A DNA stretch of 63,159 nt, the filler included. It is 9 parts of 9 records of this genome, joined end to end, with 100 filler letters (N's around TTAATTAATTAA, not from the genome) between each part and the next. Parts side by side here need not be neighbours in the genome. Positions count along the whole stretch, not along the records: positions 18,781 to 28,054 come from SRR31147125_37636; 8 more parts are not named here. One strand, written 5' to 3'. Below the pieces are notes generated by a model, which worked only from the letters and a program-made list of their open reading frames with translations, was not told where the DNA came from and did no database searches. The translations under genes and the position numbers were made by a program. Below, in pieces: positions 12,963 to 28,054 of the stretch (positions are counted from its first letter, which is position 1; the number at the start of each line of letters is the position of its first letter).

Positions 12963-13086
12963 NNNNNNNNNNNNNNNNNNNNNNNNNNNNNNNNNNNNNN
13001 NNNNNNTTAATTAATTAANNNNNNNNNNNNNNNNNNNNNNNNNNNNNNNNNNNNNNNNNNNNGGATGTCACGCAGTGACAGGGGGA

Positions 13087-13158
13087 TTACTCAAGCATAT
13101 CCGTAAATAGCTCTACTATTGCGCTTTCATATTTTTCTTCGGTGAAGTTTGGGTGCAT
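13087..13158 (-). pseudogene. hsdR: Probable hsdR 5' stub (MHPNFTEEKYESAIVELFTDMLE*)
   Basis: RBS AAAGGA, resemblance to HsdR N-termini (FTE..YE.A..ELF), expected position downstream of hsdM/hsdS; stops next to a palindromic element. Confidence 0.5.
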
Positions 13159-13432
13159 TAAGATTCCTTTATTATATATTTAACTCTTCTTCCATCATAC
13201 AAATATTTTCTATTATTATTTGGTATTTTTCAATTATTCAATGAAATAACCACACCAACCGTCGATCCTATTAGTGCATAACAGAAACAAAACCTTCAAT
13301 ACCAAACTCAACATTAAAGCTTATTCTGCTACTCCTAATCATAAAACAAAAATCCAACCACTAATTTACTTCAACAAAGACATCTTTGCTTATTGAAATT
13401 CTATCTTATGTATTTATTGAAATTTTTTTATA

Positions 13433-14032
13433 TTATACATCTAGTCTTATTTCTTCACTCATTTGTTCACATAACTTTTGCAACAAAGGCATCATTTTTT
13501 TCACTTCAGGTTCACTTATCAAATCTGCCTGTAATAGCATATCTTGTGCTCCCTTATACAGCATAACTATATATTTATTGACAAACTCTTCAATTCCTGA
13601 AAAGTATTTGGTGATTTCAGAACTATAAAGAAGTTCTATCCTTTCAAAATATGTGGCGTAAGTGAATATCTGAAGTGGGTTAACATCAGCCACTTTCTTT
13701 TTATCCAACTTTCCAATCAGTGTAATAATCAACTTTTCAACTTTTTCGACACTTGATTTGTATTGTTGGGTACTTCCTAATATCAATGAAACCACTCGAT
13801 ATACTTCATATCTTTTTTCAAATAAAGCAATATCATTTTGTTGTTTCAAAAACTCTTCTTGTCTTTTAGAAGTCCTCCAGCTAAACCAAATAGCAGCACC
13901 GCCTACAAATAAGCTTGCAATTATTCCACACATAGTTAGCCAGTCAAACCTATTTGCTGATATAAAATATATTTCTAATTCACCGAGTATTCTGACAATC
14001 TGTTCTTGCACTTCGGGTTTAATCGTCTCCAT
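13433..14032 (-). CDS. Hypothetical membrane-anchored protein
   Basis: 199 aa, RBS GAGGT, one TM segment then 'QQNDIALFEKRYEVY' helix. Confidence 0.7.
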   Translation of the reverse strand: METIKPEVQEQIVRILGELEIYFISANRFDWLTMCGIIASLFVGGAAIWFSWRTSKRQEEFLKQQNDIALFEKRYEVYRVVSLILGSTQQYKSSVEKVEKLIITLIGKLDKKKVADVNPLQIFTYATYFERIELLYSSEITKYFSGIEEFVNKYIVMLYKGAQDMLLQADLISEPEVKKMMPLLQKLCEQMSEEIRLDV

Positions 14033-14045
14033 ACTTACACCTCAT

Positions 14046-14435
14046 TTATTTGATGCTATGCCAATATGATGTATTCTTTCTTATCTTTCTTTGTTCAAAA
14101 AGTCTATTCAAGATTGCTTCAGCATCTTCTATCGACATATTTAGATTGTTTGCTATACCTTTTGCTTTTACGTCACCTTTAGAGTTTATGTATTCAAGAA
14201 CTTGCTCATCATATGGGTGCTCTTCTTTATATCTTCTTTCTTTATTTTCATTTTGATAATACTCTGCTGCTTCACTATAGTAAGTTTCAATTTTATAGAG
14301 ATACTTTTTTGCTTGTTCTTCACTCTCTTTTGCTTTAGATGCCTTAATCCATGCAACAATTGCACCACCAGCTGCTAAAATAACTGTTATCACGTCACTG
14401 AAATTCACTTTGAACGTTTCTGAAAAATCAAACAT
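14046..14435 (-). CDS. Hypothetical protein: N-terminal TM plus C-terminal winged-helix-like domain
   Basis: VITVILAAGGAIVAWI; VLEYI...AKGIANNLNMS...ILNRL. Confidence 0.7.
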   Translation of the reverse strand: MFDFSETFKVNFSDVITVILAAGGAIVAWIKASKAKESEEQAKKYLYKIETYYSEAAEYYQNENKERRYKEEHPYDEQVLEYINSKGDVKAKGIANNLNMSIEDAEAILNRLFEQRKIRKNTSYWHSIK

Positions 14436-14437
14436 AT

Positions 14438-15658
14438 CTACACCTCCATCCCTTCAACATTCAACTCACCACTCATTAACTTAGGCAATAAAGCATCACG
14501 AGTCTGCTGTAAACAAATAATTTCATCATCCAATGTATTTATTTGTTTAAAAATTGTTTCAAAAAAAACAAAATATTTTTCTCTAATAGTTATAGGTGGT
14601 AGTTGTACTTCAACTTCCGCGAGCCCCTTTTTATTCAAAGAATCAAAAACCGAACCACCAGATGCTCTATTTTTTATAGTTTCAATGCTATATTTAATCA
14701 AATAATATAAAACACTTGTTGGGATTTCTTCACCTCTTATCGATGCCAAACCCCGACCAATACAGCACTCATTAACTGCAATATTCATATCTCCAACAGG
14801 TGCTCGAACACTTATTAGAATATCATCTTTTTGAGCTATCCGTTTTGGTTCACTACACCATTTCTCAATTTTGGGTTTTCTTAATCCAAATTCCTTACTA
14901 CCTTGAAAAAATGGCAATCCATTCCCATCATAATTATAAGTTGTTGATGGCGGTGATTGCCCCATTGTGATTGTTGCAACATCTTCAAGATGCTTCTTTA
15001 TCCAGTTTTCTTCTGCTTCATCCACAAACCAGTTCTTAAAAATCGTCTGTGCAATTTCTTCCAGCTTTTCGCAAGTCTTACGGTTATTCTCTATTTTATT
15101 ATCCAGCGAGGATAAAATATTAACAATTATTTTTTGTGTATCTATATTTGGATATGCTATATCTAATTTTCTAACATTATCTTTTGTTATCGTCTTTGTT
15201 ACACTACCAGTTGCTTTAGTTTTAATATAGCGTTCATAATTTTCCATGAACAAATATGCATATTTTTGAAGAATCACCTCTTCGTTAACTCTTATCAAAA
15301 ATAAATTCATTGCTAAAGAAACTGGTTTCTCCATATTAGGCATTAAATATACACTACCTGCATTTGCAATTTTATTCATAAGTATATCTCCAGAGTATAC
15401 TTTAGATTTCTCTAAAAAATGATACGCACTCTCAGAAATATACTTAAAATCATTTTTACTAAATGCGTTCTTTTCAAAGTTAGTAGTACGTATCATTACC
15501 GCATAGTCTTCTTCATCTAGTAGTTCAACGTTTTTTTTAAGAATTTTGTATGAACCATTAGCATGATAATCTGTAAGCAAAAGAATAAGATTGCCAAGTT
15601 TATCTATCTCCCACGAACTTGGTACTTTACCGAATTCTGCAAATTTATTATTATCCAT
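14438..15658 (-). CDS. hsdS: Type I R-M specificity subunit
   Basis: Two TRDs, ILSSLDNKIENN spacer, C-terminal RDALLPKLMSGE. Confidence 0.95.
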   Translation of the reverse strand: MDNNKFAEFGKVPSSWEIDKLGNLILLLTDYHANGSYKILKKNVELLDEEDYAVMIRTTNFEKNAFSKNDFKYISESAYHFLEKSKVYSGDILMNKIANAGSVYLMPNMEKPVSLAMNLFLIRVNEEVILQKYAYLFMENYERYIKTKATGSVTKTITKDNVRKLDIAYPNIDTQKIIVNILSSLDNKIENNRKTCEKLEEIAQTIFKNWFVDEAEENWIKKHLEDVATITMGQSPPSTTYNYDGNGLPFFQGSKEFGLRKPKIEKWCSEPKRIAQKDDILISVRAPVGDMNIAVNECCIGRGLASIRGEEIPTSVLYYLIKYSIETIKNRASGGSVFDSLNKKGLAEVEVQLPPITIREKYFVFFETIFKQINTLDDEIICLQQTRDALLPKLMSGELNVEGMEV

Positions 15659-16718
15659 CTACTTCACCATCTTCCTGGGTATCAAGTACAATTTCATATT
15701 GACTTTCAATTATTTCACCATCTTCTAAGTCTTTATCATAAATTACGTTAGTGTACTCGATTTCTTTATCTGGCAAAGCACAGTCTAAATGAACGGTTAT
15801 TCTCCTATATTTATTATTCTTTATGTCCTTATAATAAACATCAATTGAGGTTTCTAAAGATATTCCATCAAAGAAGACATTTTCTCCATCATCATCTTCA
15901 GAGTACTTAGCTCTATATAGTCTTAACTCCTCATTTAAAATTCGTATAGTCTTCAACTCAAACTCTGGTCTGCTTGCAAATAATAAACCATTAACTTCAT
16001 CCTTTAGACTATCTAAAAAATAACCACTTCCAATATAATCCTCATATTCAAGAAATTCTTCATCAATCTTATATTCATACTTCAAATGTTCCAATACTTG
16101 CTCTACAGACCTAAATATTTTAAAATTACATTTTAAATCATTCTTTAGCACTTTTTCATCAAAATCATTATCTTTTGTAAAAAATATAATTTCATCATCA
16201 TAATTATATGAATAATTTACGATAGTTTCCCATATAACTGCATCTTTGAAACCTGCGTCTTTATATTGCTTATTATTTTGCTTTAAAGTTTTAAAAGGTT
16301 GTTTCTTTTCAATTGCACGACCAATAATTGAATTGAAGGCATCTGGATACTCGCATATTTCTGCACCACAACTATCAATATACTTGTCACGAGAGTTTGC
16401 AATATGATTTTTATACTCCCTATTCGTAAATTTTATCTCCATACATAGTGGTTGTTCAATTATTGAAGATAAATCATTATTAATTTTTTCAATCTCAGAG
16501 TATGCTGATTTAGTCCTGCTACTATACCCATATCGATAATGCTCAAATATTTCGTTAACAGCTATTCTTGAAACTACCAATTTCACTTTTTTTGTGATTC
16601 TGTACTTACTTATTGCTTCAACGATTCTGTTGTAGTTTGAAGAGAACTCATATTTGAAATAATTCTTTTTTGTAGGTATTTCTAATACATTTGTATCAAA
16701 GAATAAATAAGAATTCAT
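15651..16718 (-). CDS. PIN-domain protein (DUF4935/PIN_12-like)
   Basis: YLFFDTNVL, AVNEI, GFKDAVIWETI, FFTKDNDF give the PIN acidic tetrad. Confidence 0.8.
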   Translation of the reverse strand: MNSYLFFDTNVLEIPTKKNYFKYEFSSNYNRIVEAISKYRITKKVKLVVSRIAVNEIFEHYRYGYSSRTKSAYSEIEKINNDLSSIIEQPLCMEIKFTNREYKNHIANSRDKYIDSCGAEICEYPDAFNSIIGRAIEKKQPFKTLKQNNKQYKDAGFKDAVIWETIVNYSYNYDDEIIFFTKDNDFDEKVLKNDLKCNFKIFRSVEQVLEHLKYEYKIDEEFLEYEDYIGSGYFLDSLKDEVNGLLFASRPEFELKTIRILNEELRLYRAKYSEDDDGENVFFDGISLETSIDVYYKDIKNNKYRRITVHLDCALPDKEIEYTNVIYDKDLEDGEIIESQYEIVLDTQEDGEVDG

Positions 16719-16719
16719 T

Positions 16720-18234
16720 TTAAATCTCCCAACCAATCCCCTTTAACTGCTTCTTAACTTCTACCGTTAACTTATCCCCTTCTTTAAAAAGCTCCGAAAG
16801 TTCAGATGTCAAACGCTCCATCTTCTCATCAAATGGCTCGCCGTCTTCCTCTTCTGCTTCAAGACCAACATAACGCCCAGGGGTTAGAATGTAATCGTTT
16901 TTCTTAATATCATCAAGGGTTGCAGACTTACAGAACCCTGCTATATCTTCATAGCCTTCTGATTTCTGCCAGTTTTCAGCGGTTTGCGCAATCTTTTGAA
17001 TATCTCCTAAGTTGTTTTCATCTGTATTGAAAGTCAGCTCTCTCAGCTTACGTGATATCATTGTGCCCATATTTCTGGCATCAATAAAAAGTGTTTCACC
17101 TTTGCGCTGTTTATTTTTTGTGATAAACCAAAGGCAGACTGGAATCTGTGTCGTATAAAAAAGCTGTGATGGCATCGCAACAATCACTTCTACCATATCA
17201 TCTTCCAAAATCTTTTGGCGGATATCGCCTTCACCACTCGCTTGAGATGAAAGAGAACCGTTAGCAAGAATCAATCCCATTTTGCCATTTGGTGCAAGGT
17301 GATGGATCATATGTTGCATCCATGCATAGTTAGCATTGGCAGCAGGCGGCAAACCGTATTTCCACCGCACATCATCTTTTACTTGAGATTGTGGCCAGTC
17401 CATATTGAATGGCGGATTTGCCAATACATAATCCGCTTTTAGTGTTTTATGTTGATCATTGGTAAAACTATCGGCATTAAATGACCCAAGATTAGCTTCA
17501 ATCCCACGGATCGCAAGGTTCATCATGCACATTTTCCATGTGGTTGGGTTGCTCTCTTGACCATAAACCGATATGTTGTTGATATTGCCTTGATGCGCTT
17601 TGATAAATTTAGCTGATTGAACAAACATACCTCCGCTTCCACAAGCAGGGTCATACACGCGCCCTTGATATGGTCTTAAAACTTCAACCATAGTTTGAAC
17701 AACGCATGCTGGCGTATAGAATTCTCCGCCACGCTTGCCTTCGGCTTCTGCAAACATAGAAAGGCAATACTCATACACTCTTCCAAGAGTATCTTGTTCC
17801 TCTTGTCCATGTAAAGCAAGGTTAGAGAAAAGGTCGACAACTTCTCCAAGTCTTCTTTTATCAAGCTCTGGTCTTGCATAGTTTTTAGGCAAAACACCCT
17901 TAAGCTGTTTATTTTGGCTCTCAATAGAACTCATAGCATCATCAATCATCTTGCCGATTTCTGGTGATTTAGAGTGGCTTTTTATATAGTTCCACCTAGC
18001 TTCTTGTGGCACAAAAAAGATACCATCCATCATATATTCATCTCTATCCTCTTCAAAACCATCGCCTTCAGAAAGCAACTCATTGTATCTATCTTCGAAC
18101 TTATCCGAAATATACTTCAAAAAAATAAGCCCCAAAACAACATGCTTATACTCAGAAGCATCCATACTGCCTCTTAGTTTATCCGCTGCTGCCCAAAGGT
18201 CTTTCTCAAACTTTAGTGTACTATTGTCTGCCAT
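16720..18234 (-). CDS. hsdM: Type I R-M N6-adenine methyltransferase
   Basis: LWAAADKLRG, GEFYTP, YDPACGSGGM, ANPPFN. Confidence 0.97.
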   Translation of the reverse strand: MADNSTLKFEKDLWAAADKLRGSMDASEYKHVVLGLIFLKYISDKFEDRYNELLSEGDGFEEDRDEYMMDGIFFVPQEARWNYIKSHSKSPEIGKMIDDAMSSIESQNKQLKGVLPKNYARPELDKRRLGEVVDLFSNLALHGQEEQDTLGRVYEYCLSMFAEAEGKRGGEFYTPACVVQTMVEVLRPYQGRVYDPACGSGGMFVQSAKFIKAHQGNINNISVYGQESNPTTWKMCMMNLAIRGIEANLGSFNADSFTNDQHKTLKADYVLANPPFNMDWPQSQVKDDVRWKYGLPPAANANYAWMQHMIHHLAPNGKMGLILANGSLSSQASGEGDIRQKILEDDMVEVIVAMPSQLFYTTQIPVCLWFITKNKQRKGETLFIDARNMGTMISRKLRELTFNTDENNLGDIQKIAQTAENWQKSEGYEDIAGFCKSATLDDIKKNDYILTPGRYVGLEAEEEDGEPFDEKMERLTSELSELFKEGDKLTVEVKKQLKGIGWEI

Positions 18235-18336
18235 TACATAATCCTTTAGTATTCGATATTTTCAAAAACAATTATAACACTTTCGTGCATTTTTTTCCAT
18301 ATAACGCTTCATTTTTTTATTGATAACTACATTTAT

Positions 18337-18680
18337 CTACTCAGCATACACCAAACACTTCCTCGACGCACTCCCAGTATAATAAAAAGGATAACATGTA
18401 ACCAAAACCAAGCTACTATTACTATCAGCCTCAAAGGCTATTGGCTCATCGCTATCTATAATCTGGATTTTCGAAACCCTGTAGTTGTACACTTTGTTGT
18501 TGTACGAAATCGATATCTTATCTCCTACCTCAGCATATTTTAGTATCTTAAACTCTGTATCTCTGTGCGCCATCAATACGCACAATCCCTCTTGCCCTGG
18601 TAGAGATGATGACGGAAGCCAGCCTATGTCTTTCTTAAGCGTTTTCTCATCTACGCCTTGCATTACATCGTATGTTTTTT
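18337..18680 (-). CDS. Sortase (class D-like), 5' truncated
   Basis: AHRDT, LVLVTCYPF and downstream Arg. Confidence 0.85.
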
Positions 18681-18937
18681 NNNNNNNNNNNNNNNNNNNN
18701 NNNNNNNNNNNNNNNNNNNNNNNNTTAATTAATTAANNNNNNNNNNNNNNNNNNNNNNNNNNNNNNNNNNNNNNNNNNNNTTCCCCCTTATAGGTGAGAG
18801 ATTGGAATTGCCTGCCGTCTCTGGGTAGGCACGGGGAGCGAGCGGCGATCGCCCTACTTTAACACGCATCGTCACTTTGGCAACATGCCGCCTGATTAAA
18901 ATACGGTTCTCTCGAGTAAAACTTGTTTCGGAAGATC

Positions 18938-19057
18938 TCCCCCTTTGCCAAAGGGGGGCCGGTGGGGATTTTTCCGGGTTCGCAAAGCCCAAAATTTATC
19001 GGTGCTTTTTCTAACGCCTTAAAATCCCGCTGAATCCTCCTTTTTCAAAGGGGGACT
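18938..19057. repeat. REP-like pair of inverted GC-rich palindromes
   Basis: CCCCCTTTGCCAAAGGGGG...GGGGATTT facing AAATCCC...CCTCCTTTTTCAAAGGGGG. Confidence 0.6.
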
Positions 19058-19138
19058 TATCCACTGCAGTATCAATGTTCCGATCTAAGTCAATCTTACC
19101 TTCATTCTGGAAGCTTGGGCCTTTCAGAGCACCGGATC

Positions 19139-19170
19139 AAAAAAATGCCTCACCAATATTTGGTGAGGCA
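19139..19170 (-). terminator. Rho-independent terminator after the candidate selenoprotein gene
   Basis: TGCCTCACCA-N5-TGGTGAGGCA stem followed by 7 T on the minus strand. Confidence 0.85.
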
Positions 19171-19202
19171 ACGTCAGGGTTGAAAATGAGTCGACGCCCT
19201 CA

Positions 19203-19496
19203 TCACTCCTTTATGGTGCCCCGATAGGTTCCCGCATCGCGCAGATGCTGCTCCATCTGCTCGATGGTGATCTTTGCCGGGTCGTATACCACCCGGTTGA
19301 CCTCTTTGAACTTACGCCAGCCTTTTTCTACTGAGATGACACCCGGCCGCCCTTCCAGGGCAGCGTCGCCTACGTCGTATCAGGCGACCTCGAAAGTAAC
19401 CTGGGATGTTTGCGCCAGGGCAGGCACTGCCGATATTGCGCTGAAAAGAACAAAGCACCCCATAAACAACAAGAACCATTTCATGATCCATTTCAT
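19203..19496 (-). CDS. Candidate exported selenoprotein, 97 aa, Sec39, MsrA-core/HMA-like; not in the ORF track
   Basis: AGGAGG RBS (19504-19509), signal peptide ending ALA|Q, in-frame TGA at 19380-19382, 58 further codons to a TGATGA double stop, SECIS-like hairpin, terminator. Confidence 0.8.
19346..19364 (-). promoter_or_regulatory. Bacterial SECIS-like hairpin
   Basis: GCTGCCC-TGGAA-GGGCGGC; apical loop begins 22 nt after the UGA and has G at position 2. Confidence 0.7.
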
Positions 19497-19615
19497 ATTC
19501 CGGCCTCCTGTTCGTTTGGCGGCAAAGCCAGGGGTCGATTCCATGCGGGGGGGGGAGGGAAAACAAGATAGCCCCGGCTTTGCCGTTTAGCGGTGATCGC
19601 GATCACCGGAGATGG

Positions 19616-20206
19616 TTACATCTTCTTTGCAAGGGGTGCGTGACCGATCTCCACGTTGAACTTTTCACAGTAGATAATCACGCTGTCATACATTGCGGGG
19701 TCTGCATTAGCCGGCAGGGCGAATTTAACCGTGCCTGTAAACTGTTTGAGCATGCCAAGGTGAATGCCCGCCTTACGGTCTCCGCCTTTGCTGAGGTACA
19801 CTTGACCGTCCGGCACCTTATCCACTTTGATGTCGGCCAGGGTGAGCACATAGTGACCCATCTCCTCGGCGAGTGTCACCTTGCCGGCCGCATGATGACC
19901 GTCCGATCCGGAAAGCATCGACATCATAGGAGCTGCCATGGTGTCCTTGTGCATCTTCTCCTTCATCATTTTGTCGTCCGCCATGCCGGAATCTTTCATC
20001 TCCTTGTCCATCATTTTGTCGGTGTCCATCTTTTTGGGGGCCATCTTGTCGTCCATCATCTTATCTGACTGCATTTGGTCCGACTTCATTTGGTCCGATT
20101 TCATATGGCTCTCTTCCATCTTCCCGCTGCCGGCGCAGGCGGTTACCGCATACAACGTTGCCATTGCCATCACGGCCATCACGATTCGAATCGTTCTTTT
20201 CATCAT
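19616..20206 (-). CDS. Met-rich (MxxDx pentapeptide repeat) DM13-domain lipoprotein
   Basis: Lipobox-like VTAC; about 19 Met in about 68 aa; C-terminal PDGQVYL...LGMLK...G...YDSVIIYCEKFNV (DM13). Confidence 0.85.
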   Translation of the reverse strand: MMKRTIRIVMAVMAMATLYAVTACAGSGKMEESHMKSDQMKSDQMQSDKMMDDKMAPKKMDTDKMMDKEMKDSGMADDKMMKEKMHKDTMAAPMMSMLSGSDGHHAAGKVTLAEEMGHYVLTLADIKVDKVPDGQVYLSKGGDRKAGIHLGMLKQFTGTVKFALPANADPAMYDSVIIYCEKFNVEIGHAPLAKKM

Positions 20207-20310
20207 ATTCGCTCCATTTCCTGGTAAGGGTTTGCCCGGTGGGGGTAAGCCACCGGTGCTGCATCATCCTGGCCTCGGCCATCCTATCTTTCCGACCATC
20301 ACTGTTGAGA

Positions 20311-20377
20311 ATAGTAGGCATCGGCCTTAAAGCAGGGTTAAAGGGAATATAAAGTTCTGGTAAAGATTGAATTAAAA
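20311..20377 (-). promoter_or_regulatory. OmpR/PhoB-type tandem binding boxes plus -10 element
   Basis: TAAAG at 20328, 20339, 20350 and 20361 (exact 11-bp period); minus-strand TACTAT at 20316-20311, about 10 bp from the last box. Confidence 0.7.
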
Positions 20378-20391
20378 CGTGGCGGGATAGT

Positions 20392-21468
20392 TCAGCCGGA
20401 TACTACGGGAAGAGAGAACCACATACAGGTTTTACCGGGCTCGCTTTCGGCCCCGACCTCCCCTCCGTGGGCTTCGATGAGGGTTTTGACGATGGACAGG
20501 CCGATACCCGCGCCGCCGCCCTCACGCGAGCGTGACGGGTCGGCCCGATAGAATCGTTCGAAGACAAAGGGCAGATCTTCGGCGGAGATGCCGGGGCCGC
20601 TGTTGATGAAGCTGACCTGCACATTTCCGTCCTGTTGCTCGGCCGCAATGGTGACGCTGCCGTTGGCGGGAGTGTACTTGCAGGCATTTTCGATCAGATT
20701 CCGCAGTGCTTGAAGCAGCTTGTCGGGATCGGCCGTTACCGAATCCGCACCGGGTGCGAAACGGGTCTTCACTGTGATCGTTTTCTGTTCGAACTGGGGT
20801 TTGTAAAGCACAAGCAGCTGCTTTACCAGATCTTCCAGGGAGAGCGGTTTGCGGGTCAGATAGGCCTCGGCCGCCTCGGCTTTGGCCAGTTGCTGCAGAT
20901 CTTCGACCAGATGAACCAGGCGCAGTACTTCCTGCTGCAACATATTGAATGTCCCCGCAGACGGCGGCACCACGGCGTCGCTCAACCCCTCCAGATAGCC
21001 GCGCAGATTGGTTAAGGGCGTACGCAATTCGTGGGCCACGTCGGACACCATCCTTTTTCGCAGCCGCTCCAGCTTCTCCAGGCTTTCGGCCATGCGGTTG
21101 AAAGCGAGACCGAGCTGGCCGATCTCATCGCGGGAGGTGACCGCTACGCGTTCTGAAAAATTGCCGGCGGAGACTTTTCGGGTGATGGTGGCCATCTGGG
21201 AAAGCGGCCGCAGCACGCGTCGGGTCAGCAGAAAGCTGAGCAGCAGGGCCAGGGCCAGGGCTGACAGCGTGGCCCAGAGCATGTAGCGATGGATGGCCGC
21301 CAGAAACATCTGGTGGGTTTCGGTGGGAGAGACATCGTACTTGTCCATGAGGGTCATGAAGTAATCGGCGGCCAACTGGTCGATGGCCACCCAGATCACC
21401 AGAATAATCACCGCGATCACCGGCACGACATTGATCAGAAGCAGTTTCCAGAGCAGATATCGTTTCAT
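20392..21468 (-). CDS. Sensor histidine kinase (BaeS-like; 2 TM, HAMP, HisKA, HATPase)
   Basis: [35 protein letters not shown]. Confidence 0.95.
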   Translation of the reverse strand: MKRYLLWKLLLINVVPVIAVIILVIWVAIDQLAADYFMTLMDKYDVSPTETHQMFLAAIHRYMLWATLSALALALLLSFLLTRRVLRPLSQMATITRKVSAGNFSERVAVTSRDEIGQLGLAFNRMAESLEKLERLRKRMVSDVAHELRTPLTNLRGYLEGLSDAVVPPSAGTFNMLQQEVLRLVHLVEDLQQLAKAEAAEAYLTRKPLSLEDLVKQLLVLYKPQFEQKTITVKTRFAPGADSVTADPDKLLQALRNLIENACKYTPANGSVTIAAEQQDGNVQVSFINSGPGISAEDLPFVFERFYRADPSRSREGGGAGIGLSIVKTLIEAHGGEVGAESEPGKTCMWFSLPVVSG

Positions 21469-21483
21469 GGCGGTCTATTTCTC

Positions 21484-22194
21484 CTACTCGTCAGCCAGGC
21501 GATAGCCAAACCCTCGAACGGTGATGATGCGGCAAGGCTTGGCCGGATCGGATTCGATCTTCTGCCTCAACTTGCCGATGTGCACATCGACCACACGATC
21601 GACAACCGCATCCTCATGGTCGTAGAGCCGCCTCAGCAGCTCCTCCCGGGAGAAGAGTCGCCCGGGTGCTTTCAGCAGTGCCTGCAACAGCTTGTACTCG
21701 GTTGCCGTCAACGGTACATTCTGTCCCGCCAGGGTCACCGTGTGCTTCTCCTCATCCATTACCAGGTCGCCATGGGTCAACAGATGGCCGTGCTGCTGCA
21801 ACTGGGGTCGCGATCGCCGCAGTATCGCCTTGACCCGTTCGACCAGCTCACGCGGGCTGAACGGTTTGACGACGTAGTCATCCGCTCCCAGAGAGAGCCC
21901 CAATACCCTGTCGATCTCCTCCTCTCTTGCCGTCAGCATCAGAATGGGGACGTCCGAGGTTTTGCGCAGCCGACGGCAGATCTCCCAGCCGTCTATCTTG
22001 GGCAGCATCACATCGAGGATCACCAGCAGAGGTTGTCTCGCCTGGGCCAGCTTGAGCGCCATCAGCCCGTCATGGGCGATCGAGGTGGAAAAACCCTCTC
22101 GCTGCAGGTAGGTCTCCACCAGTTGGGCCGTATTGGGATCGTCTTCGACGATCAGAATCGGATCCGATGCTTCGGTCTCATGCATAAGCTGCAT
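21484..22194 (-). CDS. OmpR-family response regulator
   Basis: ILIVEDD, LDVMLP, KPFSPREL, ITVRGFGY; start at 22194 or 22185. Confidence 0.95.
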   Translation of the reverse strand: MQLMHETEASDPILIVEDDPNTAQLVETYLQREGFSTSIAHDGLMALKLAQARQPLLVILDVMLPKIDGWEICRRLRKTSDVPILMLTAREEEIDRVLGLSLGADDYVVKPFSPRELVERVKAILRRSRPQLQQHGHLLTHGDLVMDEEKHTVTLAGQNVPLTATEYKLLQALLKAPGRLFSREELLRRLYDHEDAVVDRVVDVHIGKLRQKIESDPAKPCRIITVRGFGYRLADE

Positions 22195-22385
22195 CCTTGG
22201 TGGAAGTGTCGATTGCCAATTCGGGCATCGATTCGGGTGGTAATTTTCTGAATCGGTATGATGGAGAGGATACCCGAAACCGTTCGCGTCGCGCAAGGGT
22301 GATCGAGTGCCGTGTGGTTCAATCAGCAATAAAACCGGACAGGGACGCGGCCCTGCCCGGCGAATGTTTCAGTGCAGTCGAGTGA

Positions 22386-22991
22386 TCACGCCACTGCAGC
22401 CGAATAGTTCTCGTTCACCTGATCCCAGTTGATCACGTTGAAGAAGGCGGCAATGTAATCCGGCCGCCTGTTCTGATACTTCAGGTAGTAGGCGTGCTCC
22501 CACACATCGAGGCCGATAACGGGAACTTTGCCCTGGCTCAACGGGCTGTCCTGGTTGGCTGTGGTGACGATCTCCAACTGCCCGTTGTCTGCGACGAGCC
22601 AGGTCCAACCACTGCCGAAGAGCAGGGCTGCCGAGTTGGAGAATTTGTCCCGGAATGCGTCCAGGCTGCCGAAACGCTTTTCAATGGCTGCCACTGCGGG
22701 TCCTTCGGCCTTGACACTCTTTTTCAAAAGGGGCCAGAAGAAGCTGTGGTTGGCATGCCCGCCGCCATGGTTGCGCACGGCGGTGCGGATGCTTTCAGGC
22801 ACTTCGTTGAGATTGCGCACCAACTGCTCGATACTCAGCGCCTGCAACCGATCGTGGCCGTCGAGCGCGGCATTGAGTTTGTCCACGTAGGTTTGATGAT
22901 GTTTGGTATGATGAATCTCCATGGTACGGGCATCGATAAACGGCTCCAATGCATCGTAACCATAAGAGAGTTCAGGCAATGTATGTTTCAT
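22386..22991 (-). CDS. Fe/Mn superoxide dismutase
   Basis: [27 protein letters not shown]. Confidence 0.97.
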
Positions 22992-23306
22992 GATTACCCC
23001 CTATATCACTACCCCCGTTCGCATCACCGCCTCCTATCAGCATAGTGGATAACAGACGGATTATGCTTGGGGGAGCATCTCAGATGTTGGTTATAAATCG
23101 TTCGTCATCGGGTGTTTTGGCCGGATGGCAAGTTCTTGCATGGTATTGCCGGTCAGTTAACCCGATGCGAACCTCGTACAAGAACAAGCTTTTAATGACT
23201 GGAGGTTTTGTCAAGCCGGGGGTGATGCAATCGCAACGGCCCTATCGAACTAATTAGGAATTATATTTCCGCTGCCAATATCAACCATGCAGCATGGTCT
23301 TGCCAA

Positions 23307-23375
23307 TCGTACTCGCACTTGTACTTGGTTTCCAATTCGATAGTGTCTCTTTTTCGAGTACGAGTACGAGTACGA
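23307..23375. repeat. Inverted repeat built from CGAGTA hexamers
   Basis: TCGTACTCGCACTTGTACTTG (23307) is complementary, with mismatches, to CGAGTACGAGTACGAGTACGA (23355). Confidence 0.6.
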
Positions 23376-23420
23376 AAAACGTAATCCCTTATTCTGGCAG
23401 ATAGGCCTATTGGTTTTGGT

Positions 23421-25598
23421 TCATCGGCCGGTTGGTTCGAATGTACCGGGAAACGGTGCGTAGATATGCCCATCCTTTCCGGATTTTAAATCGGCCGCCA
23501 TGCGGTTGAAATGCACGAAGCGATGCTTCAATTCATAAAAACCGTGCCACCAGGCGTAATCCGGCGCCATCATGGCCGATCCCATGCGGGCTCTCCGGCC
23601 CTCGTGGTGCCAGAGCTCGTAGTACTGCCATTCGATCGGCTCGTCGAAATACTTCTCTTTTGAAATCAGGCCCTCGGCGTAAAGCTCATCCATGACGGCT
23701 TTCACCGGATCGAAGTACGCTTCATTGTAATGCTGGACCACCCGGTCGAAATTATCGAAATGGCTTTGGGTCCAGGTGGTGGAGTGGCACTGCAGGCAGA
23801 CGGCGGTCATCTTGCCGCGTTCGATCTTATGGTCGGTCCGGGCTGGAAAAGGCTTGAAATCCTGCGGCCGGACGGTTCGCGGGGACTGGGTCTCCCAACT
23901 GAGCCGTTCGGTCACATCATGCGACACATCGTACTGTCCGGTTACGGCGGACATATGGCATGTGGCACAGGTGGGCGCCCGGTAGTGCTTGGCGGCCTCC
24001 CACTGCCGGCTGGCCGGGTCCCATGTCCAGTTGCTGCCTTCTGCGTGGTAGATGGTACCGTGCTTGGATTCGTTGTAAATCTCGATCTGGGGATGATCGG
24101 GCCCGAGGTGGCACTGATCGCATGCCTCGGGCTTGCGCGCTTCGGCGATGGAGAAGCGATGCCGGGTGTGGCAGCTGCTGCAGCTGCCTTTGCTGCCGTC
24201 CGGATTGATCCGACCGACGCCGACGTTGGGCCAGGTTGCCGGCAGCGGTTTCCCATTTTCCACAGTCACCACGGTGCCGTGGCACGCCATGCAGCCGGTG
24301 GCCCTTTCGATCTCGTTGTTCATCCCGTCGTTGAGCCAGTGGTCTATCTTCCACATGATCTCATGGGTATTGGCATGTTTGCTGCGGGCATACTGCTCGG
24401 CCTGCTTGGGATGGCATCCCTGGCAATTCTTGGGTGAGACGACAACGGAGATGGGTTTGGGTGAGTGCTCCTTGTGGGAGGCCAATACCACCTGCTCGTC
24501 TGTGGCCCGATGGCACTTGTCGCAGTGGACGTCCACCCGAGCATGCACCCCGGCTTGCCAATCCTGAAAGATGCCCGGTGTCTTGACACGATGACAATCG
24601 ATGCAGGTTTGGCCTACGATGGCGGCCGCCCTCGTTTCGGGCAGCAGCCGCAGCGGGAAATCCCAGCGCCACACACCGATGCAGGCCAATATCAGGAAAA
24701 TCAGCACTAAATTGGTGTAGGCCATCACCACAAAAACTTTGCGGGCGGCCGGCGGAGTATCCGGTTTGCCCCCGCCGGACGCGAGCTCGGCAACGAGGCG
24801 CACCTTTTCCAGCACTTCAGTGCCGTGGGGAGCGCCTTTGATCGCCTCGGTCAGATCGGTTCCGGCACTGTGCTTGCCGAAATGGCGCCCATCTTTCCAT
24901 TTGCCGCTCGCACTGACATCATAGACGCGGTTGTCATATGCGAAGTAAGCGGGGCGGCCCCCGGCCCCGTCAAAATTGCCCAGATTGCCTCTGGTCACAT
25001 CCCCTGCCCCTCCATCCGGTCGGATCGCATGCTTCATTTTGCGATGCACCACCGTTACGGCCGCCAGTCCAATGGATACCATCAGGGCAAAAAGAGCTAC
25101 TTTAATCGACAGCATCAGGCCGAACGTATTGTCGAAGAATTGAGACCATCGATCCATGCGTGCCCATGTCAAATAGATCCCGGTCAGCGTGAGCAAGGCC
25201 ATGCACGATAGCCCGAGGATCCGTTCGGGCTTTGGGATACCGCCGGTCAGGCGAGTGGGGCGAATAAAAATGTGGATGTAAAAAATCGCTCCGAAAAAGA
25301 TTACGGCCGCCAGCAGATGAAGATATCCGATGATAAAACGAAGCGTCTTGTGCATCGGATGCTGCAGCTGTTCGGCTTTATCGAGCACCGCGGCTGAGAT
25401 TGGATAGCGATAGCCATTGCGGATATAGGCGAAACCGACTGTTTTGAGCTGTCCGCCAGTGCTCTCCTGGTGGCAGAAGATGCAGCCTCGACCGGTTTCG
25501 CGCGCATACTCGTCTTTGGCCCAGGATGAAGGGCCGGACATAAGGCATAGCAGGACAAGGACCAGAAAGTACGAGACCACGGTGCAGCACTTCGACAT
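23421..25598 (-). CDS. Membrane multiheme cytochrome c: monoheme c + TM bundle + cytochrome b5-like domain + HAO-family octaheme domain
   Basis: 9 CxxCH (1+8); b5-like VYDVS...WKDGRHFGKHSAGTDLT...APHG; HAO-family CHTRHRFS, CHLGPDHPQ, WHHEGRRAR. Confidence 0.85.
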   Translation of the reverse strand: MSKCCTVVSYFLVLVLLCLMSGPSSWAKDEYARETGRGCIFCHQESTGGQLKTVGFAYIRNGYRYPISAAVLDKAEQLQHPMHKTLRFIIGYLHLLAAVIFFGAIFYIHIFIRPTRLTGGIPKPERILGLSCMALLTLTGIYLTWARMDRWSQFFDNTFGLMLSIKVALFALMVSIGLAAVTVVHRKMKHAIRPDGGAGDVTRGNLGNFDGAGGRPAYFAYDNRVYDVSASGKWKDGRHFGKHSAGTDLTEAIKGAPHGTEVLEKVRLVAELASGGGKPDTPPAARKVFVVMAYTNLVLIFLILACIGVWRWDFPLRLLPETRAAAIVGQTCIDCHRVKTPGIFQDWQAGVHARVDVHCDKCHRATDEQVVLASHKEHSPKPISVVVSPKNCQGCHPKQAEQYARSKHANTHEIMWKIDHWLNDGMNNEIERATGCMACHGTVVTVENGKPLPATWPNVGVGRINPDGSKGSCSSCHTRHRFSIAEARKPEACDQCHLGPDHPQIEIYNESKHGTIYHAEGSNWTWDPASRQWEAAKHYRAPTCATCHMSAVTGQYDVSHDVTERLSWETQSPRTVRPQDFKPFPARTDHKIERGKMTAVCLQCHSTTWTQSHFDNFDRVVQHYNEAYFDPVKAVMDELYAEGLISKEKYFDEPIEWQYYELWHHEGRRARMGSAMMAPDYAWWHGFYELKHRFVHFNRMAADLKSGKDGHIYAPFPGTFEPTGR

Positions 25599-25933
25599 AG
25601 CCGACCAACCTATCGTTGCAGATGATACCCGCCAATCGATTCGGGCTCTTTTGGGGGCCCGTTATAGGTCCTGCCAGGCAGGCAATTGGCAGAACGGTGC
25701 TCCTTTTATACCACGGATGGCCCAATACGCCAATGTATTGAACACCGGCTTCCGTTGGATAAGCCAAGGTTGTATGCTGTGCACACAGTGGAACTTCATG
25801 TGCGCATTAGCATACACCTATATAACCGGATATGCCTGGGTATGGCCTGTAAAGCCGGCATGCCAAGGATTCATATGAGGCCCAATGCGCACCATATGGA
25901 CTTTTTTCAACCGAACACAAAAGGGTTTCACTG

Positions 25934-25949
25934 TGGCACACCCTTTGCT
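25934..25949 (+). promoter_or_regulatory. Sigma54 -24/-12 promoter
   Basis: TGGCAC-ACCCT-TTGCT with exact GG-N10-GC spacing, upstream of the gene at 26017. Confidence 0.8.
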
Positions 25950-26016
25950 GAGATATCCGCCGTGAGAGGCCGGACTTGTATCGGTCAGCACTTGAAATCC
26001 GTCCAGGAGGAGCTAA

Positions 26017-26930
26017 ATGAGCACTGCCCAAGCTGTCAGCAACGACACCCTGAAAAGCCAGAATATTTTCGGACAGCCGTTGACCATCTTCGGTGTTCCC
26101 GTGGATCGTGAAAAGATCTTTACCAATCACAAAGGGGTGTACAAAAGCCGCGTGGAAAAGCGGCAGCGCAAACTGATCGTAAAGAGCACCTTCATCAAGT
26201 TCTTCCTGCACCATGATGAAACGATTCAGTGCCTGACCACCGGATACTCGCCGGTGAGCGCCAAAGAGCAGATGATCACCGGTCTCGCATTTCTCTACTT
26301 CAAAAGAGCGCTCTTTATCTTTACCGAAAAACGCATATTGCATATCCCGACCCGGTTCAACCGGTCACCGCGCAGCGCCATCTCCCAAATTCTGTTCGAG
26401 GATTGCGCCCGGATCCAGATCAAAGGGCGCGCCCTGCACATTCAGTACAAAAACGGTCGACAGGAAGTGTTTCCCTACCTTGGACGCAAGGAGAAGAAAA
26501 AGGTTCGCGCCCTGATCGCCAAATTGTCGCTGTCGCCCAAAGAGGCCGGCCAACTGAAAGGCCGTGTCTATCTTTGCCCGAGCTGCACCCATATCCTTCC
26601 TGCCGACAGCAAGTCCTGCGGCACATGCAGCCTTGTGTTCAAGTCGACATTCAAAACCAGACTCTTCTCACTGCTGATTCCCGGGGGGGATACTTTTACG
26701 GACGCTACCCATTCGTGGGGGCCGGCACCGCACTTTTCGAACTTGCATTGATCGGGATTCTCGCCATAAAAGGCATGGAGATTCAGATAGGAATTCCAAT
26801 CACCCTGGACATGATGATCGTTGCCGCCCTGGCATTGCTCCTCGAAAAATTCATCATGGTATTTCATACCCAGCAACTGCTCGAGGACTTCGTTCCTGAA
26901 AAAAAAGATTATGCCATGCGCAAAATATAG
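26017..26930 (+). CDS. Hypothetical protein (possible PH-like domain, Zn ribbon, 2 C-terminal TM); frameshift at a G-run near 26685
   Basis: RBS AGGAGG; CPSC...CGTC; LIPGG continues as GGYFY in the 26229-26930 frame. Confidence 0.65.
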
Positions 26931-27197
26931 ACCTCCTGGTTGGCTATCACCTGATTGGCTATCAATAGATCCTTTGCAACCCATACCATATTCCCAAGAC
27001 GAAGCTCACAGGCGGACATTAAGTCCGCCTTTTCATTTCCGATCGCTAAAGAGACAAGCCGGTTTCCCACCGACAATTAAGGAATGCTTTCTATTGCGAA
27101 ACCAGAAGTCAGCATATAGAGTAACAGGATTGTCAACAGCTGCAATCTGAGGGCCAAACCGCCTCAGTACGGTAGATTTCAAAATGACGGAGCCGGT

Positions 27198-28054
27198 ATG
27201 AAGAAAACAATTGCCATCGCCATCGACGGCTCGGTTAACTGTACCCACGCCGTACAGTATGCCGTAGCCATGTATAAATCACTGCCGGAGTTGAGTTATG
27301 TGCTGGTCCATGTTCAGGCGGGCTTATCCCGGTACCTCACCGAGGAGGCGGAAAGGAACCTGAAGGCACAACGGGCATTGAACAAACTCATCAAGGCCAA
27401 CCGGGAGACCTCCAACCAGGTCATCGATAAGGTTCGCAAGCAGATGATTCGTCAGGGCATCGACCCGGATCGAATCGAGACATGCTCCCGCATCCAAACG
27501 ACCGGCATTGCCGAAGACCTCATGGATGAGTGTGAAGGCAAATCCTACGATGCCATCGTTTTGGGCCGCCGCGGTATCGGCCAACTGCAGGAACTGGTGA
27601 CGGGCAGTGTCACGTCCAGTCTGATCGAACTTGCCAAAGTAATCCCGCTATGGACGGTGGATGGAGAGGTGACCGACAACGGCGTGGTACTTGCTGCTGA
27701 CGGCTCCCAAAATTCGTTGCGAGCCCTGGATCACCTCGCGTTTATGTTAAGCGGGCAGGAGGAGGCTGCGATTCACATCCTTCATGTCAGGCCTCGTTTC
27801 AGGGAAGTCTGTGAAATTAAATGTGATGATGAGACATTAGCAGCCGCCAGGGAGATTCTTCTGGATGGCGACCGCCACTGTATTGATGGATTCTATGCAC
27901 AAGCAGTTGAGATTGTTCGCAGGAACGGATTAGACCCGGATCAAATGGAGATCCAAACTGTCAACAGCCAGATCTCCATCGCAAGGGCGCTTATAGACAC
28001 GGCCCGCAAGCGCCGTTTCGGTACCATCGTTGTGGGCCGCCGCGGGTTAAAAAA
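27198..28054 (+). CDS. Tandem universal stress protein, 3' truncated
   Basis: IAIDGS...IVLGRRG...GSV and AADGS...IVVGRRG. Confidence 0.9.

Follow-up and report, generated by a model that had tools for sequence, protein, structure and literature searches.

The window analysed here is a stretch of 63,159 nucleotides, and the system in question is a locus on the minus strand, lying wholly inside the single contig 18781-28054, with genes for an OmpR-family response regulator, a short-loop histidine kinase, a Met-rich DM13 lipoprotein and an exported selenoprotein. The evidence makes it probable that this locus is the control centre, with two accessory effectors, of a predicted periplasmic methionine (Met) sulfoxide defence regulon in relatives of Desulfatitalea. 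A dispersed methionine sulfoxide repair regulon comprising the kinase/regulator pair, a CTTTAH box, the exported methionine sulfoxide reductase MsrAB, the DM13 protein and the selenoprotein is well supported by comparative sequence analysis, because the box is common to the DM13-selenoprotein unit, a distant msrAB and unlinked DM13 genes. Exported MsrAB is the predicted core target of the box. The DM13 lipoprotein and the selenoprotein are predicted targets too, as is an exported MsrA containing selenocysteine (Sec) in one genome. A first-pass annotation had proposed a two-component system controlling defence against periplasmic Met oxidation with a Met-rich scavenger, and this proposal was supported by the Msr neighbourhoods and the shared box.

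Organization of the locus

All elements listed in the first-pass annotation (sod, regulator, kinase, boxes, DM13 lipoprotein, selenoprotein and terminator) were present, and all coordinates given for the locus refer to the minus strand. The response regulator gene (21484-22185; PF00072 + PF00486) has its likely start at the ATG at 22185, as judged from the ribosome-binding site. The 358-aa HAMP histidine kinase (20392-21468; PF00672/PF00512/PF02518) has a 33-aa periplasmic loop (21283-21381) containing Met41, His52 and Met54. Four direct repeats CTTTA[C/T/A] with an 11-nt period (20327-20365) form the predicted regulator binding site, and a -10-like hexamer, TACTAT, follows them (20311-20316). 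The box pattern gave two overlapping matches in the window compared to 0.00 expected (100 shuffles). The promoter call rests on the repeats because a sigma-70 scan found nothing above chance.

The 196-aa DM13 lipoprotein (19616-20206) has the lipobox VTAC at Cys24, a 69-aa Met tract (19916-20122) with 19 Met and 30 charged residues (28% Met, 43% charged), and a DM13 domain (19631-19906; PF10517, E 2e-14, 54.4 bits compared to a gathering cut-off of 25) whose Cys180 was invariant in 32 sequences. The match to TIGR02953 (MxKDx) was weak and below the cut-off (20 and 41 bits, respectively), the composition being alike. DM13 is predicted to be redox-related; a literature search on bacterial DM13 function found no paper. 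The selenoprotein gene (19203-19496) is separated from the DM13 gene by a long intergenic hairpin without a U-tract (19520-19585; folding z -1.6 in the window and -4.2 in the related locus L001), which may be an mRNA-stabilising element. The DM13-selenoprotein unit ends at an intrinsic terminator (19139-19170) with a hairpin at 19146-19170 (folding z -4.4).

The box and its Msr neighbours

Matches to the selenoprotein were sought in 301 genomes of one order, which we take to be the Desulfobacterales, and in a phylum sample of 401 genomes. In G001 and G156, the two closest relatives of the window locus, a perfect box was found only before the DM13(-selenoprotein) genes and before an exported msrAB approximately 2.2 Mb away, and a one-mismatch box precedes the exported Sec-MsrA of G001. 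A reversed-pattern control gave 0-3 matches per genome. DM13 genes unlinked to the locus bear the CTTTAH box in G287, G030 and G220, and that of G207 has a degenerate box, recognised by eye. The shared box thus predicts co-regulation of a Met-rich protein with a periplasmic Met sulfoxide reductase in G001, G156, G287, G030 and G220. The Met-rich DM13 family was found in 6 of the 301 genomes; five of the six carry the selenoprotein, compared to 38 of 301 overall (nominal p 1.4e-4, a value that ignores kinship). A Met-poor DM13 gene lies directly before msrAB in G464 of the phylum sample.

The selenoprotein loci mapped number 43: those of the window and L001, one on a metagenome contig, and 40 from further matches; another three matches, all weak, were left out. 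Exported MsrA or MsrAB was found within two genes in 21 of them, a molybdenum (Mo) protein of the sulfite oxidase family in seven, and one or the other in 26. A kinase neighbour was present in 27/43 loci, as was a regulator homolog identified by clustering. The box lies upstream in 17 of the 20 selenoprotein loci with a short kinase and in none of the other 23. The phylum sample added 11 Sec loci, of which nine lie next to an Msr, a Mo-oxidoreductase or a kinase, and one (L111) encodes a fusion with Sec-MsrA.

The kinase sensor region was also searched alone, which avoids selection through the selenoprotein. The kinase family occurred in 40/301 genomes, half of which (20/40) share the selenoprotein. 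Twenty further loci were picked by the kinase, one in G113 and the others in 19 of the 20 genomes that had no selenoprotein match. Exported MsrAB adjoins 17 of these, one of the remainder being at a contig edge and two having none, and the CTTTAH box was found in 14/20. The gene-neighbourhood and promoter-box checks suggested by the earlier annotation were thus run with positive outcomes.

The ~216-aa Mo-domain proteins that adjoin the selenoprotein in L038, L044, L051-L053, L064, L069, L106, L110 and L113 have a twin-Arg-like N-terminus. They scored below the MsrP, SorA and all other cut-offs, SorA giving the best score, and they may tentatively be called MsrP-like. A search for small Met-rich open reading frames (ORFs) beside other family members gave one more convincing case, L052, where an extracytoplasmic function (ECF) sigma factor and then a secreted 113-aa protein (14% Met) follow the selenoprotein (L052:4959-5928, minus strand), a pair resembling SigF/MrpX.

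A second kinase family of ~495 aa with conserved periplasmic Mets (MYQQE, MLMV) was observed in L039, L040, L043, L044, L052, L069, L108 and L109, accompanying a selenoprotein, an Msr or a spondin-domain protein. In several of these loci the kinase is followed by the motif TTCGTGATGA-N3-CGTGAA, which differs from the CTTTAH box.

UGA decoding and distribution of the selenoprotein

The selenoprotein has 97 aa, a signal-peptide-like N-terminus ending in ALA (judged by eye) and Sec at position 39 (U39) in the motif F-x-V-x-U-Y-D-V-G. Its Sec UGA (19380-19382) and the core of its selenocysteine insertion sequence (SECIS), GCCC-UGGAA-GGGC (19349-19361), together span 19349-19382. Comparison of homologous sequences confirmed the in-frame UGA as genuine selenocysteine coding, far beyond chance. 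The single in-frame TGA was kept in 43/44 homologous matches, carried by 38 of the 301 genomes, and in 12/17 matches of the phylum sample, where 17 of the 401 genomes had matches. Across the 43 aligned loci the Sec site always reads F-x-V-x-U-[YF]-x-V. The nearest relative (74%) is found, with the same gene order, in an uncultured Desulfatitalea sp. genome, and selA was found in 5/5 carrier genomes examined.

The SECIS core, GCCC-UGGAN-GGGC in the family, forms a 4-bp hairpin at a fixed distance 3' of the UGA. Its stem was 98% paired; four of the 42 distinct rows have U-A in place of C-G, and none of 500 shuffles reached as high. Moreover, the Leu codon in the SECIS loop is CTG in 43/43 loci and the next Leu mixes CTG, CTC, CTT and TTG, indicating that synonymous sites are frozen. 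In loop G and spacing the element agrees with the bSECIS model, which calls for a G within the first two positions of the loop and a spacing of 16-37 nt from the UGA (PMC13188914). Folded by itself, the window SECIS region did not outperform shuffles (z -0.4 to -1.4), so that the SECIS evidence is comparative.

A profile search with the family gave 372 matches at E<=0.001. Among the top 116, the residue at the Sec site was Cys in 44, Trp in 25 and Thr in one, the other 46 being without the full motif; the Trp homologs probably represent TGA translated as Trp. In the Cys homolog of L115 a TGT codon was confirmed in the DNA and the hairpin is lost. A homolog with Ser at the Sec position was observed in L116 (2431-2727, minus strand), without Msr context and with the same neighbour genes as the L115 homolog. 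The candidate selenoprotein of the first-pass annotation was therefore borne out by UGA conservation, SECIS and Cys homologs.

The 97-aa protein had no Pfam match and passed no NCBIfam cut-off, and the family had no match among plasmids or viral contigs. A PDB search with the single sequence found no match, nor did a comparison of the post-UGA stretch with longer proteins, which is weak evidence. When a natural Cys homolog was used to search the Atlas, all leads were below 0.9 (unnamed 55-aa clusters and one HMA cluster). The selenoprotein motif is missing from Table 1 of PMC13188914 (119 families), and the deep-Sep supplements gave 0 matches to four motifs. The family is thus uncatalogued in the inventories checked, subscription journals lying outside the literature check.

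It could be argued that the locus is a loose cluster in which a generic envelope-stress kinase stands beside unrelated genes and the UGA is a stop. Superoxide dismutase (SOD) and a multiheme cytochrome are indeed merely local neighbours, and no library family claims the small protein. However, the UGA, the SECIS, the Cys homologs, the box and the Msr linkage are all conserved, so that this explanation is already largely refuted and would now be very surprising.

Fold of the selenoprotein and its relation to MsrA and HMA

The AlphaFold model of the selenoprotein (pLDDT 88) is a beta-alpha-beta-beta-alpha-beta domain of the ferredoxin/HMA type, the mature form having 69 aa. The top structural matches were HMA domains (Z 10.0 and root-mean-square deviation (rmsd) 1.9 for an ATP7B domain; TM 0.81 to MerP). 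MsrA cores (Z 8.5) gave the lowest rmsd, 1.3-1.4 A over 67-68 residues, in a match covering residues 6-97 of the 205 in the MsrA chain, and a profile comparison with an MsrA-only alignment matched at 94.6%. U39 aligns both to the catalytic Cys/Sec of MsrA (GCFWG, at the start of helix 1) and to the second Cys of HMA. Compared with the sulfoxide-pocket residues of MsrA as defined in PMC8417374, Phe52 is retained as Tyr and Glu94 is invariant. Trp53 is replaced by Asp, Gly, Ser, Asn or Ala (UYDV in the window) and is Trp in 0/43, the 13-aa Tyr82 loop is deleted, and the C-terminal half that bears Tyr134 is absent. All 43 selenoproteins have one Sec and no CxxC, GMxCxxC or UxxU metal site, and Pfam HMA did not match. 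The best library match was to region 143-204 of NF041383, found in 43/43 members (best E 8e-11), with a score of 41 bits compared to a cut-off of 275; NF041115 gave about 20 compared to 95 bits. The CopZ, MerP and UxxU library matches were likewise weak, all metal-family scores being far below the cut-off. By these comparisons the selenoprotein fails membership of both MsrA and HMA.

The first-pass annotation had regarded the selenoprotein as a catalytic mini-MsrA used in place of MsrP. Such a minimal Met sulfoxide reductase would repair the lipoprotein, the reactivity of Sec offsetting the lost pocket, and the catalytic position of U39, the invariant Glu94, the profile match and the lowest rmsd to MsrA cores all speak for it. 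It is also co-oriented with the Met-rich protein in the window, and in L111 (5254-6250, minus strand; genome G493) a two-Sec fusion joins a signal peptide, the selenoprotein domain and a full Sec-MsrA in one frame. Nevertheless, a protein from which Trp53, Tyr82 and Tyr134 are missing is unlikely to carry out the repair on its own. The selenoprotein usually adjoins an intact MsrAB, beside which it would be redundant for repair, and in the two nearest relatives a full-length exported MsrAB lies elsewhere under the same box. We regard the mini-MsrA explanation as improbable, and this claim of the earlier annotation was not upheld.

A copper or silver (soft-metal) module was the competing model. 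According to it, Met41, His52 and Met54 of the kinase would bind Cu(I), the Met tract and the selenoprotein would chelate metal, and Msr would keep the Met ligands reduced. This agrees with the HMA fold, with Sec at the position of the second Cys of CxxC, with the weak CopZ/MerP/UxxU matches, with the Met/His-rich kinase loop and with a CopD-like segment in the upstream cytochrome; moreover, E. coli MsrPQ is copper-induced via CusSR (PMC9302797). In contrast, the selenoprotein has neither CxxC nor a second ligand, its metal-family scores are low, and the box targets are Msr enzymes, with no efflux pumps. When the ORFs of 82 fetched loci were scanned with crude motifs, none contained GMxCxxC or a multicopper-oxidase or CusA motif, and a single P-type ATPase turned up (L114). 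The lack of copper-transport motifs in the fetched loci weakened this model; copper handling is disfavoured, and it is kept as a live minority reading of rather low probability.

Sensor kinase and proposed mechanism

Met41, His52 and Met54 were each invariant in 20/20 short kinases, and the loop is a candidate Met-redox or Cu(I) sensor. The best library scores of the window kinase were to WalK/BaeS models, below the cut-off, and its score for the heavy-metal kinase subfamily TIGR01386 (HprSR/CusSR) was 215.6 bits compared to a cut-off of 292.55. HypV/HprS is described as sensing HOCl in a Met-dependent manner through a Met switch (bioRxiv 2021.09.09.459708), MrpX works with YedY in Azospira suillum (PMC4436054), and in uropathogenic E. 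coli (UPEC) OrhKR accompanies an MsrPQ-like pair plus a Met-rich peptide (PMC8550376).

For the predicted methionine sulfoxide defence regulon we propose that oxidants (reactive chlorine or halogen species, or peroxide on oxygen exposure) would oxidise Met41 and Met54 of the kinase loop, and that the response regulator would then bind the CTTTAH boxes. The membrane-anchored Met tract would take up oxidant sacrificially and would be recycled by MsrAB; Met also makes up 10% (45/450) of the N-terminal tails of the Msr proteins beside the selenoprotein. The selenoprotein may serve as an accessory redox partner and not as a sulfoxide reductase, which is the least certain step. Within this model its exposed selenol might, tentatively, resolve the catalytic Cys/Sec once the Msr enzymes have become oxidised; direct scavenging of oxidant by the selenoprotein is a somewhat fainter prospect.

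A resolving partner is plausible because the MsrB domains have no second Cys, the catalytic Cys being the only one in 20/20 fusions. Thioredoxin-like motifs occurred in 4 of the 82 fetched loci (crude motif scan). C. oremlandii MsrA (CoMsrA) is described as resolving via a second copy of the catalytic residue (PMC4479559), and the periplasmic MsrAB of Neisseria as needing a fused thioredoxin domain and DsbD (PMC6210582). In its fullest form, the proposal would make the selenoprotein an MsrA-derived periplasmic Msr recycler that acts in trans to resolve Sec-MsrA and one-Cys MsrB and takes the place of thioredoxin/DsbD, under an undescribed Met-redox-sensing two-component family; this stronger version we consider doubtful. 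The selenoprotein is not required for MsrAB recycling, since it was not found in half of the kinase genomes, selA-positive ones included.

Several findings weigh against the regulon or against the place of single components in it. In eleven of the 43 selenoprotein loci the neighbourhood lacks both Msr-type genes and a kinase, and the DM13 gene adjoins the selenoprotein in 3/43 loci, all close kin. The selenoprotein was not found in 20/40 kinase genomes, and a profile re-test of five selA-positive ones, which are drafts, gave none. Among the boxes, one in G287 precedes an unrelated secreted protein, two one-mismatch sites (G001, G207) look like chance, and msrAB under the box was seen in relatives only. 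Nine further positions of the kinase loop are as invariant as the Mets, which are thus not uniquely conserved. HMA outranks MsrA as a fold match of the selenoprotein (Z 10.0 and 8.5, respectively), and no periplasmic electron donor was identified, no dedicated donor search having been run.

Neighbouring genes and other features of the window

The Fe/Mn superoxide dismutase gene (sod, 22386-22991; PF00081/PF02777) was rejected as a member of the system. It was found in 2/43 selenoprotein loci, does not occur at this locus in G156, has no box upstream and is followed by a terminator-like hairpin (22334-22361). The earlier inclusion of SOD in the module was consequently abandoned, and the gene is regarded as an incidental neighbour. 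The membrane multiheme cytochrome (725 aa, 23421-25598), present in 3/43 loci, was likewise rejected; it combines a CopD-like segment, a cytochrome-b5-like domain and a heme domain like that of hydroxylamine oxidoreductase (HAO), and its synteny is confined to the window, L001 and L036.

Palindromic CCCCCTTTGCCAAAGGGGG-type repeats were observed at 18938-19055, 3' of the terminator, and are perhaps a small mobile element or one resembling repetitive extragenic palindromes (REP-like). The window consists of nine contigs joined by N-runs around the TTAATTAA spacer, with contig GC contents of 31-55%. They probably come from different organisms, and adjacency across the gaps is therefore meaningless. 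Contig 13063-18680 presumably carries the M and S genes of a type I restriction-modification system.

Significance and comparison with known systems

Roughly one genome in eight among those sampled in the order carries the selenoprotein family, which annotation has missed. The kinase/regulator pair is a candidate oxidant-sensing two-component family for exported MsrAB in anaerobes, with an exact operator sequence defined. Bacterial DM13 proteins gain a testable context, which, if the stronger version of the proposal holds, would be the first bacterial DM13 regulon. Moreover, the re-reduction of exported MsrAB with one-Cys MsrB and no adjacent thioredoxin or DsbD becomes testable with three small proteins. 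On the same stronger version, relatives of sulfate reducers would have a complete sense-scavenge-repair loop.

The selenoprotein shares core fold, catalytic position and Glu94 with MsrA (PF01625), including the Sec-MsrA of Clostridium oremlandii, but lacks Trp53, the Tyr82 loop and the C-terminal half, and has no Pfam PMSR match. Unlike NF041383 (VPGUxxT thioredoxin-like selenoprotein type 2), it stands alone, without a thioredoxin domain or VPGU motif. It has the same size and fold as HMA/CopZ/MerP and NF041115 (UxxU metal-binding selenoprotein) but has a single Sec, no CxxC or UxxU and no metal-transport context. The PilB N-terminal domain and DsbD, as described in PMC6210582, answer the same need, periplasmic re-reduction of exported MsrAB, and the fusion of an N-terminal partner to Msr recurs in L111; the partner there is a CxxC thioredoxin fold, whereas here it is a one-Sec protein with an MsrA core, fused or adjacent.

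At the level of the system, SigF/NrsF-MrpX-YedYZ of Azospira suillum (PMC4436054) and OrhKR-C3566/7/8 of UPEC (PMC8550376) likewise combine a sensor-driven, exported, Met-rich charged protein with a periplasmic Met sulfoxide reductase. MrpX has 20% Met and 44% charged residues (PMC4436054), compared to 28% and 43% in the window tract. In contrast to these systems, which use MsrPQ, repair here is by thiol MsrAB (plus Sec-MsrA), a lipoprotein with a fused DM13 domain serves as predicted scavenger, there is an extra selenoprotein, the predicted regulon is dispersed and the host lineage is anaerobic. In E. coli, HprSR (YedVW/HypVW)-hiuH-msrPQ is also OmpR-type, with conserved periplasmic Mets and periplasmic Met repair (bioRxiv 2021.09.09.459708), whereas the present kinase shows a loop of 33 aa and WalK/BaeS-like scores, the box and targets are others, and the Met switch is a presumed one. 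The regulon is predicted to work like the HprSR/OrhKR-MsrPQ-MrpX systems, but its kinase is of a different family, its Msr enzymes are of the thiol/selenol kind, its scavenger is DM13-anchored and it includes a selenoprotein absent from the inventories checked.

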